A DNA stretch of 31,640 nt from Verrucomicrobiota bacterium (GTDB lineage Bacteria; Verrucomicrobiota; Verrucomicrobiia; Limisphaerales; CANJXF01), in assembly GCA_038214755.1 (NCBI GenBank), contig JBBQRQ010000058.1:1-31640 (forward strand). Reading direction: 5' to 3'. The translations under genes and the position numbers were made by a program. The notes under the pieces were generated by a model. The model was not told the DNA's origin. It did not search any database and worked only from the letters and a program-made list of their open reading frames with translations. Each line of letters begins with the position of its first letter. Position 1 is the stretch's first letter. Shown here in pieces: positions 19,476 through 22,077 of the stretch.

Positions 19476-20258
19476 GTGAAAATTTTGTTTGTCGGAGACA
19501 TTGTGGGCGAGCCGGGGCGAAGGGCTTTGCAACAACTGGTGCCGAAATTGAAGCGCCAGCACGAAATCAATTTGGTCATCGCGAATGGTGAAAATTCCGC
19601 GGGCGGCGCGGGCATCACCGTTAAGACCGCGATGGAAATTTACGGCGCGGGCGTGGATGTCATCACCACCGGCGACCATCTTTGGGACCAAAAAGAAGTC
19701 ACCGCGCTGTTGCAAAATGAGCCGCGATTTTTGCGTCCGTGCAATTATCCGCGGGGCACGATTGGCCAGGGAAGCATGATCTGGCAAATCGCGAGTATGC
19801 CGCCGGTTGCGGTGCTGAATTTGCAGGGACGCACTTTCATGCCTCCATTGGAAAATCCATTTTCCTGCGCGCAAATCGAAGTCGAGCGACTCCGCAAAAT
19901 CACGCCGATTATTTTTGTCGATTTTCACGCGGAAGCGACTTCAGAAAAAATTGCGCTGGCGCGAATGCTCGACGGAAAAGTCAGCGCCGTCATCGGCACG
20001 CACACGCACGTGCAAACGGCGGATGAACAAATTTTTCCCGGCGGCACGGCCTATCTTTCCGACGCAGGTTTTACCGGCCCGCAAGCCAGTGTGCTCGGTC
20101 GCGAAATCGAACCGGTCATCAAAAAGTTTTTGACCAGCACGCCCCAAAAATTTGAGATCGCCACGGAAGATGTATTTTTGAAAGGCGTGTTGATCGAGGT
20201 GGATGAAGTCAGTGGCAGGGCGCTGAAAATTGAGCGAGTATCTCAGGCTGCGCCGTAG
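19476..20258 (+). CDS. ymdB: YmdB/TIGR00282 family metallophosphoesterase
   Basis: FVGDIVG, ANGEN, TTGDH, DFHAEATSEK, GTHTHV. GTG start at 19476. Confidence 0.92.
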   Translation: MKILFVGDIVGEPGRRALQQLVPKLKRQHEINLVIANGENSAGGAGITVKTAMEIYGAGVDVITTGDHLWDQKEVTALLQNEPRFLRPCNYPRGTIGQGSMIWQIASMPPVAVLNLQGRTFMPPLENPFSCAQIEVERLRKITPIIFVDFHAEATSEKIALARMLDGKVSAVIGTHTHVQTADEQIFPGGTAYLSDAGFTGPQASVLGREIEPVIKKFLTSTPQKFEIATEDVFLKGVLIEVDEVSGRALKIERVSQAAP

Positions 20259-20324
20259 CCGCCGACGTGAGGAGGCGGAGATCTTAATTCACAGAATCCG
20301 CCTCCTCACGTCGGCGGCTACGGC
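20252..20324. repeat. GTAG-type REP doublet with perfect 28-bp arms
   Basis: GCCGTAGCCGCCGACGTGAGGAGGCGGA / TCCGCCTCCTCACGTCGGCGGCTACGGC; the GTAG supplies the ymdB TAG stop. Confidence 0.92.
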
Positions 20325-20768
20325 ATGGCAAAAATTAGAACATCGTTTCAAAACCTGCTGCGCGAAAATGGCCGTCGTTGGTAAACGCTTTGGAAATCCC
20401 GAGCCGTCGCATGACAACAAAAGAAACGTGATCCACGATTCCGGCGGAGTCCGCTTCGCCACGCTCAAAAGAGAGCCATGCTTTTCGCCAGTCATCGGTC
20501 GTTGGAACAGTCAACCGTCCTTCCTGTTCCATGTGTTTACGCAATCTACTGACGACTGAACGATATGGACGGCGCGCGGCGGCGTTGTCGCATTCCAGGA
20601 GAACGAAAGTGGTGGCCACCAGGTTGGGACGTGTTCTTATTCCAAGTTGGTTTCAAGATGAGACTAATCTTGGAGACCCTCACCCCGCCTCGCGTGGGGA
20701 GACTGCCCGTTTGGAATTTGTTTGCTGACATTTCCGAGCCGCGCCAGCCCACGCCACGGAGGCGAGGA

Positions 20769-20798
20769 CTGATGCACACTTTGCAAAGTGTGCATCAG
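20769..20798. promoter_or_regulatory. Perfect 30-bp palindrome, copy 1
   Basis: CTGATGCACACTTTGCAAAGTGTGCATCAG. Confidence 0.8.
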
Positions 20799-20953
20799 GG
20801 TCCGTCGCTCCTGAGAGAATGTCCAGACTTCATTGTTGCGTAGTGACCATCGAGGATAGCCATGAACTTCACTCGCATGGCGCGCCGTGACCCCCGGCTT
20901 CAGTCGGCGGCCCAGCCGCCCCTCCGAAACCAGGCCGGAAGGACTGGGGAGGC

Positions 20954-20989
20954 TTGACCGAAAAAGGCACACTTTGCAAAGTATGCACC
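20954..20989 (+). promoter_or_regulatory. Putative leaderless promoter overlapped by palindrome copy 2 (20967..20986)
   Basis: TTGACC-17 nt-CAAAGT-7 nt-ATG; GCACACTTTGCAAAGTATGC covers the -10 box. Confidence 0.55.
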
Positions 20990-21562
20990 ATGACGACTCC
21001 CTCTGCCCCTACGCTCTGGCGCACCTGCCGTGTGCTGGCCAATCGGACGCGCCTGCAGATGCTCCGCCTGCTCTACCAAGACCCGCCCCTGAGCGTCTCC
21101 GCGGTGGCCCTGCGCCTGGAACAGCCGTTGCCCTTGGCCAGCCAGTCCTTGCGGGCGCTGGAAGCCCGAGGGCTGCTCAAAGTCCGCCGCACGGGTCGCC
21201 GGGTGGAATACCGACCCGCGTTGGGCACGAGCGGAGAGTCCGCGCCCGGACTGGGTCCCGCCTTGAGACGAGCGTTCCAACGCGAGCCCCATCCGATCGA
21301 GACGCTCTACCAACTGGCGACGGCCTTCACCCATCCGCGGCGGATTGAGATTTACCGCGCCCTGCACCCGGAAGCCCGGACCCTGGCGCAACTGAAAGTG
21401 GTCACCCGGATTTCTGCCCATCCGTTGCTGCGGCATCTGAGGAAACTGGAGGCGCGAGGATTCGTCGTGGAACGGCAGGGGCTTTACACCGTGGCCCAGC
21501 GGCCCGACGCCTTCGGGCGCGCGCTGGCGCGGCTGGCGGGTGGAGAGCCGAGGGAGGGTTGA
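20990..21562 (+). CDS. Tandem (two-domain) ArsR-type winged helix-turn-helix protein
   Basis: Two similar repeats: LANRTRLQMLRLL...SQSLRALEARGLL and FTHPRRIEIYRAL...LRHLRKLEARGFV. Confidence 0.8.
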   Translation: MTTPSAPTLWRTCRVLANRTRLQMLRLLYQDPPLSVSAVALRLEQPLPLASQSLRALEARGLLKVRRTGRRVEYRPALGTSGESAPGLGPALRRAFQREPHPIETLYQLATAFTHPRRIEIYRALHPEARTLAQLKVVTRISAHPLLRHLRKLEARGFVVERQGLYTVAQRPDAFGRALARLAGGEPREG

Positions 21563-21587
21563 TCCACACTTTGCAAAGTGTGCATCA
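21560..21587. promoter_or_regulatory. Palindrome copy 3, beginning with the stop codon of the wHTH gene
   Basis: TGATCCACACTTTGCAAAGTGTGCATCA (one mismatch). Confidence 0.8.
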
Positions 21588-21771
21588 CGGCCCGCCACGT
21601 CCGAGAAAATGTCCAAACTCCCGTCTCCCCACCGAGTGGGAGAGCGGAGCTTTGTCTCATCTTGAACGCTCATTGGAAATAGGAGTTGAGAAAAACTTTC
21701 TTTAGCCGGTGAATGCCATTGATCATCCTCATCCCAAAGAGCGATAAGACCCACTGTATCGAGGAACACCG

Positions 21772-21987
21772 TCATGGTTGGTGTTCATTCTGGCGAGCAG
21801 CCACATCGTGTTCGCCCGAGCGGAATCGCGCTGACAAAAGATCGTAGATGCCCTGCGTGTTTCCGGGCCTCACCTCTTCGTGTCCAACAATTTTCGGCTC
21901 AAACTCCACCCGCGTTTGTTCTGCCAACTCGACCGCTTCAAGCGGGCGAAACACTCCGTGCTCATAGATCGCGTGAATCGTTTTCAT
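21772..21987 (-). CDS. AF2212/DUF104-like antitoxin
   Basis: MKTIHAIYEHGVFRPLEAVELAE; ATGA overlap with the PIN gene. Confidence 0.85.
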   Translation of the reverse strand: MKTIHAIYEHGVFRPLEAVELAEQTRVEFEPKIVGHEEVRPGNTQGIYDLLSARFRSGEHDVAARQNEHQP

Positions 21988-22077
21988 CCCTGTTATTTAC
22001 TCTGTCGAATCAATCATTGCGACACGAATTTCCAGATTTGCTCCGCTCGCTATTCATGGCTTAATTAATTTTGAACG

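Follow-up and report, generated by a model that had tools for sequence, protein, structure and literature searches.

MIC231 of Bacillus cereus exemplifies the mobile insertion cassette (MIC), and other kinds of system resemble the locus described here in part. In REP/RAYT systems (repetitive extragenic palindromes and the REP-associated tyrosine transposase, also TnpA-REP), a gene lies between two palindromes and more palindromes are scattered through the genome. In IS1, with its InsA protein, and in Sleeping Beauty, with its inverted repeat/direct repeat (IR/DR) ends, the protein that binds the end region is the transposase or a fragment of it. [quoted passage not shown] Here we describe a 1,039-bp element at 20640..21678 of a 31,640-nt stretch (positions 1 to 31,640 of contig JBBQRQ010000058.1, assembly GCA_038214755.1; hereafter the window) from a Verrucomicrobiota bacterium of the order Limisphaerales. 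It interrupts a vapC toxin gene, and is probably an IS630-family MIC that was moved in trans into a TTA in vapC and whose cargo, a 190-aa tandem winged-helix protein, is predicted to bind palindromes within the element. A full-text literature search, with subscription journals and ISfinder outside its scope, found no description of the element, the protein family or the palindrome, including its letters.

The insertion in vapC is real and precise. The toxin gene, of the PIN type and on the minus strand, is divided into a 5′ part at 21682..21775, coding for residues 1–31 and the first base of codon 32, and a 3′ part at 20335..20639, which includes the stop codon and gives a weak Pfam match to PIN; the element lies between the two pieces. 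On its left is TTA (20637..20639), which the sequence and the TNA pattern of the family make a probable 3-bp target duplication, and on its right ATA (21679..21681), which differs from TTA by one base. Excising the insertion and one 3-base flank in silico gives a 132-codon PIN frame that reads SQLL|RTRPNLV at the junction. A first-pass annotation, made from the letters of the window, had restored vapC by removing 20640..21679 and one TA; these are the same 1,042 bases, and intact homologs align across the junction as it had anticipated. Where G000 denotes the genome of the window and other G numbers further genomes, the restored frame aligns without gaps to a homolog in G042:C25, and also to one in G003:C466, from the same genus, with a one-residue gap near the junction that is the homolog's own.

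An assembly artefact or chimeric contig, in which case the insertion would not be real in the organism, is hardly credible. G000 is a 5.1-Mb metagenome-type assembly of 175 contigs, 97% complete, and repeats in such assemblies can be mis-joined, but both junctions are bridged by contigs of one public DNA run, possibly that of the source sample, which agree letter for letter with 20300-20680 and 21570-22000; moreover, the vapC halves join exactly in frame, and the element has five copies with clean, common boundaries. The same run shows two skips, of 706 and 724 nt, whose most likely source is short-form copies at other places in the genome. Among the public runs listed for this stretch, none is of RNA. 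The G+C content is 0.61-0.70 within the element and 0.47-0.56 in its flanks, and this contrast, together with a search of the family's nine other genomes that found gene, palindrome and element DNA in none, points to a probably foreign origin.

The element is closed by imperfect terminal inverted repeats (TIRs) of the IS630 type, the left at 20640..20670 on the plus strand (TTCCAAGTTGGTTTCAAGATGAGAC...) and the right, located by an inverted-repeat search, at 21648..21678 on the minus strand (TTCCAATGAGCGTTCAAGATGAGAC when read in reverse). These 31-nt arms are 77% complementary and contain an exact 13-nt core, TTCAAGATGAGAC; a second block, GTGGGGAGAC, matches at 10/10 positions between 20694-20703 and 21623-21632 and is followed by GTTTGGA, much as the first-pass annotation had described the ends. 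When 40 relatives were scanned, the last 28 bases of the element were matched in G012 and G028, and contig G028:C407 carries a 1,114-bp IS whose end, TTCTAAGTTGCAATCAAGATGAGACTAAT, agrees with the left ends in G000 at 27 of 29 bases. This IS has an inverted copy of that end on its other side, TAA on both flanks, and coding capacity for a protein with N-terminal HTH_33/HTH_23/HTH_29 domains, continued in a second frame, after a run of eight A, by DDE_3; by these features it is an IS630-family IS with matching ends, of the sort that the first-pass annotation had proposed to search for. The transposase gene that it splits (L078:366-911 and 2006-2455) is presumably ISXO2/IS1595-like, to judge by motif.

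Ends of this type number 42 in G028, mostly in MITEs of 160 bp, 34 in G343, where five MITE pairs are 145 bp long, and 4 in G366, which holds related MITEs. Because its ends are shared with the G028 IS and with these MITE families, the window element is best read as a non-autonomous IS630-family derivative. The matching IS, the gene-less copies described below and the MITEs all agree with the earlier proposal of a non-autonomous mobile unit of IS630/Tc1-mariner type that has its catalytic partner in trans. The TA duplication proposed along with it has to be replaced by a 3-bp TNA. With the ends read symmetrically as TTCC..GGAA, the repeated flank is 3 bp long, and a 2-bp reading fits fewer copies. 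Three-base flanks are identical at 9 of 12 G028 MITEs (TCA four times, TTA three times, TAA twice) and differ by one base at the remaining 3, while the IS itself has TAA/TAA; among the complete G000 copies they are identical in 2 of 4 (C5 and C118), with one mismatch in the window copy and two in C37. No report of TNA duplication by bacterial IS630 members was found in the literature searched, with ISfinder outside its scope. For fungal Fot elements, members of the same wider superfamily, TAA duplications have been recorded (PMC7386202).

A partner of the IS5 family (IS1031/IS427 groups) or PIF/Harbinger, with a DDE_Tnp_1-type transposase, was also considered for the TNA duplication. The domain PF13586 has one match in G000 and none in G028 or G012, and the ends of the G000 match, searched for two TIR motifs only (≤2 mismatches), held no convincing match; the IS5/PIF/Harbinger reading was dropped because an IS630-type IS with matching ends had been found. 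Two side observations concern the G028 MITEs. Several of those with IS630-type ends (L034, L036, L038, L039 and L041, at G028 contig ends) are broken at an internal CTAG by a repeat that starts TATTACTATGTTATGTA, and the contigs end inside this repeat; a second IS seems to favour this MITE as its target. At L043 (G028:C569:26121 onward), what comes after this IS630-type end is not the MITE interior but a different open reading frame (ORF) of ~130 aa, which may represent a further cassette with different cargo.

Four more copies of the element are present in G000: one is truncated, and three are short forms, 250-337 bp long, that lack the gene; with the window copy these make five, besides a solo end at C59:10952, and they share boundaries in the way that the first-pass annotation had hoped to see. 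The short form at C37:26762-27077 (316 bp) joins element positions 1-182 to 906-1039 and is flanked by TTA/TGT; that at C5:30097-30346 (250 bp, flanks TAA/TAA) has the length of 1,040 minus the 790-bp spacing of an internal direct repeat; and that at C118:10122-10458 is 337 bp long and also flanked by TAA/TAA. The truncated copy at C80:20025-20478 (454 bp, 89% identical) retains the left end and the 5′ part of the gene. All copies start with TTCYAAG... and finish with ...CATTGGAA, and their flanks differ from copy to copy. At ≤1 mismatch the 13-nt core occurs 11 times in the assembly, 10 times at ends of the element family and once elsewhere (C78).

The window copy, at 1,039 bp and with an intact 190-aa gene, is not a MITE in the strict sense of a small, non-coding element, whereas the 250-337-bp copies in C5, C37 and C118 are small and non-coding; since it carries a gene, it is better called a MIC than a MITE. 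Like MICs and MITEs, it has IS-type inverted-repeat ends and a target duplication and holds no transposase gene, and like MICs it pairs a long form containing a passenger gene with gene-less short forms in the same genome. Unlike MICs, its passenger is a putative autoregulated DNA-binding protein with predicted sites in the left arm and the right arm alike, the G000 assembly yielded no cognate transposase, and the ends are of the IS630 type rather than the IS231/IS4 type. Its likeness to the IS630 and IS630-Tc1-mariner groups lies in the match of its ends to an IS with HTH_33/HTH_23/HTH_29 and DDE_3, and in a target that contains TA; it departs from them in duplicating 3 bp of the form TNA (TCA, TTA, TAA) instead of the classical TA.

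The only conserved ORF of the element (20990..21562, plus strand) encodes the 190-aa winged-helix protein, of the tandem ArsR/SmtB type, and no transposase gene accompanies it. Pfam HTH_20 matches the protein in two stretches (E 7e-13), MarR_2 and HTH_5 match it in addition, and the NCBIfam ArsR/SmtB model NF033788 scores 71.7 bits against a cut-off of 55, again in two stretches; a profile search of PDB assigns residues 13-91 to the ArsR family (E 7.5e-10) and gives a weak AspA match for the second domain. An AlphaFold2 (AF2) model built from 35 sequences (predicted local distance difference test, pLDDT, 92; predicted template modelling score, pTM, 0.86) contains a helix-helix-helix-helix-strand-strand unit twice, and Foldseek, as well as VIA-align over 48,161 chains, returned single winged-helix regulators only and no nuclease, recombinase or transposase fold. 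As modelled, the protein joins two ArsR-type winged-helix domains in one chain and has no catalytic fold. The first-pass annotation had arrived at two ArsR-like winged helix-turn-helix (wHTH) repeats without a recombinase motif, and the hidden catalytic site that it had proposed to look for by structure searches did not appear in them. Pfam gave no match to Y1_Tnp, the HUH/Y1 hallmark of RAYT proteins, and the protein was matched in neither plasmid nor phage collections. No metal-site motif was identified, no aimed search having been made beyond noting one invariant Cys13. PADLOC reported winged-helix similarity to Csa3/CasR regulators only.

The protein family comprises 804 clusters at E ≤ 1e-5, nearly all of 185-192 aa, in Verrucomicrobiota and Kiritimatiellota, annotated as 'helix-turn-helix' or 'ArsR' with no further name. 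A one-genome-per-species collection contributed 289 relatives (Verrucomicrobiota, Kiritimatiellia, Lentisphaerae and one Planctomycetota bin). A quick tree, whose phylum labels were given by submitters and are in places clearly mistaken ('Bifidobacterium' bins), was for that reason not used as evidence of transfer. Like the ArsR/SmtB repressors (PDB 2kko/3gw2, 6uvu, 1r22, 4omy), the protein has winged helices, a predicted palindromic operator over its own promoter and probable autorepression. Unlike them, it fuses two domains in one 190-aa chain, where they are homodimers of ~100-aa subunits, and it has no adjacent resistance gene at this locus.

The element has three palindromes that share the core CACACTTTGCAAAGTGTG, of which the first-pass annotation had seen two, one on each side. 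Palindrome 1 (20769..20798), a perfect 30-bp palindrome, and palindrome 3 (21560..21587), which overlaps the stop codon, are predicted wHTH binding sites located 130 and 92-119 bases inward of the two ends, while palindrome 2 (20967..20990), the predicted operator, abuts the ATG at 20990. The Rfam search yielded no more than two matches, to miRNA families and below threshold, both on palindrome 1. A 66-nt direct repeat, D1, on the plus strand (20764..20829 and 21554-21619; 82% identical and 790 bp apart) carries palindromes 1 and 3 in its two units. At ≤3 mismatches, all 11 palindrome sites of G000 fall within element copies or a 35-bp remnant at C9, and each of the four other copies retains one or two; the solo palindromes of this genome could be explained by deletion inside IS630-type copies.

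Across genomes, gene and palindrome form a module. Order-wide counts were made in 401 genomes of the order, and the genomes compared are draft bins apart from one complete chromosome, G401. The gene is present in 15 of the 401 genomes and in none of the nine others of its own family; five of the 15 give 2-4 protein matches, and at least 6 of the 23 protein matches in the order are truncated or contain a stop, that of G012:C223 included, with a further internally deleted copy at G012:C265 detected at the DNA level only. Two or more palindromes bracket the gene in 19 of the 23 loci. DNA similarity between genomes spans ~620 bp, from palindrome to palindrome, and G093 and G012, which belong to different families, are 82% identical in DNA over 746 bp. 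A second set, taken across species, comprised 80 loci from other genomes, of which 78 have room on both sides; with palindromes judged at ≤2 mismatches, 54 of the 78 have one on both sides of the gene, 10 have just the upstream one, 3 just the downstream one and 11 neither, which places an upstream palindrome at 64/78 loci and a downstream one at 57/78. No neighbouring gene is conserved, the largest shared cluster covering 7 of the 80 loci.

Symmetric half-site variants recur at both sites of a locus (CATACTT..AAGTATG, CAGACTT..AAGTCTG and CACACCTT..AAGGTGTG). Where the 4-nt centre is asymmetric and the two sites stand in an exact relation, they are inverted in 5 cases and direct in 0; the remaining centre pairs are symmetric and alike (33), symmetric and differing (2) or in neither relation (14). 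Binding sites of the protein are thus a strongly supported prediction for these palindromes.

In the window, a promoter-like motif on the plus strand (20954..20985) consists of TTGAC (20954-20958), a 17-nt spacer and CAAAGT inside palindrome 2. In 55 of 65 homologous loci, TTGAC precedes the upstream palindrome by 12-14 nt, as against ≤3 of 60 for downstream palindromes at any offset, and an ATG follows 2-6 nt past the upstream palindrome in 58 of 65. Because the upstream palindrome overlaps TTGAC-N17-CAAAGT, autorepression is likely, and the gene is probably leaderless and self-repressed, with its start codon about where transcription would begin.

The module and the IS630-type ends occur independently of one another. 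G028 has 42 such ends with 0 palindromes and 0 gene matches, G200, G231 and G093 have the gene and many palindromes with 0 IS630-type ends, and 0 of the 80 wHTH loci from other genomes are flanked by these ends. The protein is therefore probably cargo rather than a factor that pairs the ends, and the first-pass suggestion that the wHTH protein, as part of an element of a new type, would bind or pair its own ends is not borne out; the ends do match those of IS-derived MITEs. Of the features that the first-pass annotation had proposed to follow along with the gene, the palindromes travel with it, on both sides at 54 of the 78 loci, and the TIRs do not, at 0 of the 80.

In G012 and G343, gene-bearing units end instead in a GC hairpin and CTGGAGTTTGGAC; with the IS630-type frame of G000, this makes two different MITE frames in which the module sits. 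The CTGGAGTTTGGAC motif also closes a palindrome-free MITE family of 100-470 bp, with 47 matches in G343, 51 in G231, 19 in G012 and 15 in G366 (≤3 mismatches). The same blocks of hairpin and motif lie inside both arms of the window element. The left subterminal block (20679..20735, plus strand) consists of a hairpin, CTCACCCCGC..GCGTGGGGAG, followed by a GTTTGGA...ACATTTCC motif that, as CTGGAGTTTGGACATTTT, also terminates a distinct MITE family of other genomes; the right block (21603..21644, minus strand) consists of a GAGTTTGGACATTTTC motif, read on the reverse strand, followed by a hairpin, GTCTCCCCAC..GTGGGAGAG. Given these hairpin-plus-motif blocks, the G000 unit may be a nested composite. 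The wHTH-bearing elements share just ~20 bases with the CTGGAGTTTGGACATTTT MITE family.

A partner for the CTGGAGTTTGGACATTTT motif was sought in 14 stretches beside single motif copies in G343 and G231, and no transposase turned up at the motif in any of them; they yielded only a Y1_Tnp (RAYT) cassette, equipped with REPs of its own, ~160-220 bases away at two G231 loci, where L141:323-784 and L142:262-672 are IS200-like Y1 transposase genes with REP hairpins of their own (Y1_Tnp E 6e-22 for L141). In these genomes, small elements lie nested one within another. At L117-L130 (G343, G231, G366 and G012), the MITEs with CTGGAGTTTGGACATTTT ends are directly adjoined by GC-rich hairpins, which vary in sequence by copy and are at times alike on both sides in direct orientation (L127, L118, L124), a pattern that suggests insertion beside REP-like hairpins or duplication of them.

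Palindromes are concentrated in gene-bearing genomes. Counted as exact CACACTT-N4-AAGTGTG in the 401 genomes, with the reversed pattern as control (1 match in all 401), they number 3-54 in 13 of the 15 gene-bearing genomes: 54 in G231, 27 in G012, 25 in G093, 23 in G366, 21 in G343, 18 in G200 and 9 in G000. The gene is lacking in 386 genomes; the exact palindrome is absent from 375 of these, single in 6 and present 4-7 times in 5, and four of the last five are 67-75% complete. Several of 14 sites fetched from G200 sit in short repeated units, the boundaries of which were not definable from 8 copies. The complete chromosome, G401, has 5 sites only, all within ~3.2 kb of its two gene copies, and one of them separates the gene from a divergent thiolase gene, as the site of an ordinary local regulator would; the others belong to an array at L230:3560-5540 of four tandem units of ~490 bp, each made of the last ~200 bases of the thiolase gene, a spacer and one palindrome. 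This tandem array is adjoined by a cluster of Vsr, GIY-YIG restriction enzyme and C5-methylase genes. In a different arrangement, at L070:1241-2694 (G231:C211), direct copies of a 170-bp unit, each with two palindromes at a distance of 115 bp, enclose the gene, and a third copy 380 bp further on brings the total to seven palindromes in 1.4 kb.

A mechanism consistent with these data would be as follows. An IS630-type DDE transposase would bind the 28-31-bp ends, excise the element and paste it at TNA, and short forms would arise by recombination between the 66-nt direct repeats that carry palindromes 1 and 3. The 190-aa protein would act as a covalently linked pseudo-dimer, with one 18-30-bp palindrome bound per molecule; at the upstream palindrome it would mask the spacer and -10-like hexamer of TTGAC-N17-CAAAGT and silence its own gene, read from a leaderless mRNA. 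The other palindromes would be extra binding sites, with a possible role in looping, in insulation from read-through or as a brake on transposition. The module itself may be a separate, older unit that became the cargo of an IS630-type MITE, or was nested in one, in this lineage, and the inner hairpin and GAGTTTGGACATTTTC blocks may be the ends of the second MITE family.

Two other accounts give the module or its protein a more active part. The palindrome-gene-palindrome module could itself be mobile or self-spreading, of an undescribed kind, its non-catalytic DNA-binding protein marking its own palindromes while the module and its solo palindromes hitch-hike in MITEs or recruit host or foreign recombinases, in a layout that recalls REP/RAYT or Xer-dependent dif modules but has no enzyme encoded by the element. 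Much of the distribution speaks for it: the gene is patchy in the order and missing from the rest of its own family, it is multiplied in a third of its genomes and often decayed, different families share DNA at 82% identity, no neighbour is conserved, scattered palindromes keep largely to gene-bearing genomes, asymmetric centres in exact relation are all inverted, and two different MITE frames carry the module. Its resemblance to REP/RAYT extends to the gene bracketed by palindromes, the scattered copies and the co-occurrence of gene and palindrome across genomes, but the protein lacks the HUH/Y1 fold and the scattered palindromes of G000 lie inside IS630-type copies, where deletion would account for the solo sites. 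Nor does the module have a catalytic domain, or any target duplication or defined ends found for it alone; the few palindromes of G401 stay near its gene copies, and a 22-row Chthoniobacterales clade looks largely vertical in the quick tree. We therefore regard self-spreading as doubtful, and consider it equally unlikely that the module is a new kind of selfish DNA of Planctomycetes-Verrucomicrobia-Chlamydiae (PVC) bacteria, in which a single-chain ArsR-type binder of its own 18-30-bp palindrome seeds genomes with tens of palindromes and moves between lineages in MITEs of several families or via host recombinases; such a system would be REP/RAYT-like, with a DNA-binding protein standing in for the enzyme.

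That the wHTH protein serves as a transposon accessory factor at subterminal palindromes, pairing the ends for the transposase or blocking them as an inhibitor, seems quite improbable. The positions of palindromes 1 and 3 inside the ends would suit such a factor, as would the sites on both sides of the gene at most loci, the confinement of G000 palindromes to element copies and one remnant, and their survival in all four other copies. In having predicted sites inside its terminal regions and encoding a small helix-turn-helix protein, the element is indeed like IS1 with InsA and Sleeping Beauty; unlike theirs, its binder is of the unrelated ArsR type, and these ends also occur on elements that lack it. 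MITEs with the same ends are free of palindromes (the 42 ends of G028 and the five 145-bp pairs of G343), the transposase-bearing IS of G028 has neither gene nor site, and no wHTH locus elsewhere is framed by these ends. An IS630-family cassette moved in trans, with the protein as cargo, is thus the account we favour, and several observations weigh against it. The flanks of the window copy (TTA/ATA) and of C37 (TTA/TGT) are not identical; tblastn with the G028 transposase found no match in G000 at E ≤ 1e-3, and the only DDE_3 match there (C7:233-601) has two stops and is without a matching end; the single public DNA run showed neither a contig with an empty site nor a joint; a strict sigma-70 scan called no promoter in the element; and the G000 palindromes stay with the element copies or one remnant, the four other copies each keeping at least one, so that a role in the element's own life is conceivable. 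Because the assembly is fragmented and slightly incomplete, the partner may be unassembled or lost; because the strict scan misses the site, the promoter is read from its conservation; and retention of palindromes in short forms would be expected anyway if these formed by recombination between palindrome-bearing direct repeats.

As a transposon, the element belongs to an ordinary class, an IS630-derived cassette without transposase, with two minor novelties in its 3-bp TNA duplication and its spread over one order of Verrucomicrobiota. The more interesting part is the cargo, a fused two-domain ArsR-type protein kept with predicted operator copies on both sides. If the protein binds these sites, mobile elements would spread a regulator and its binding sites together, and new regulatory networks, or a self-policing transposon, could arise in this simple way.

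Next to the element, an antitoxin-like gene (AF2212-like, 71 aa; PF01954, E 5.4e-9) lies upstream of vapC at 21772..21987 on the minus strand and shares 4 bases with the vapC start. On the other side, between a YmdB-like gene and the end of vapC, positions 20253-20324 hold a near-perfect 27-nt inverted repeat, CCGTAGCCGCCGACGTGAGGAGGCGGA ... TCCGCCTCCTCACGTCGGCGGCTACGG. Hairpins much like it (GTAGCAGCCGACGTGAGGAGGC...) are found at G093 loci L095-L097, and by its sequence the repeat looks like a REP-type element common to several families.

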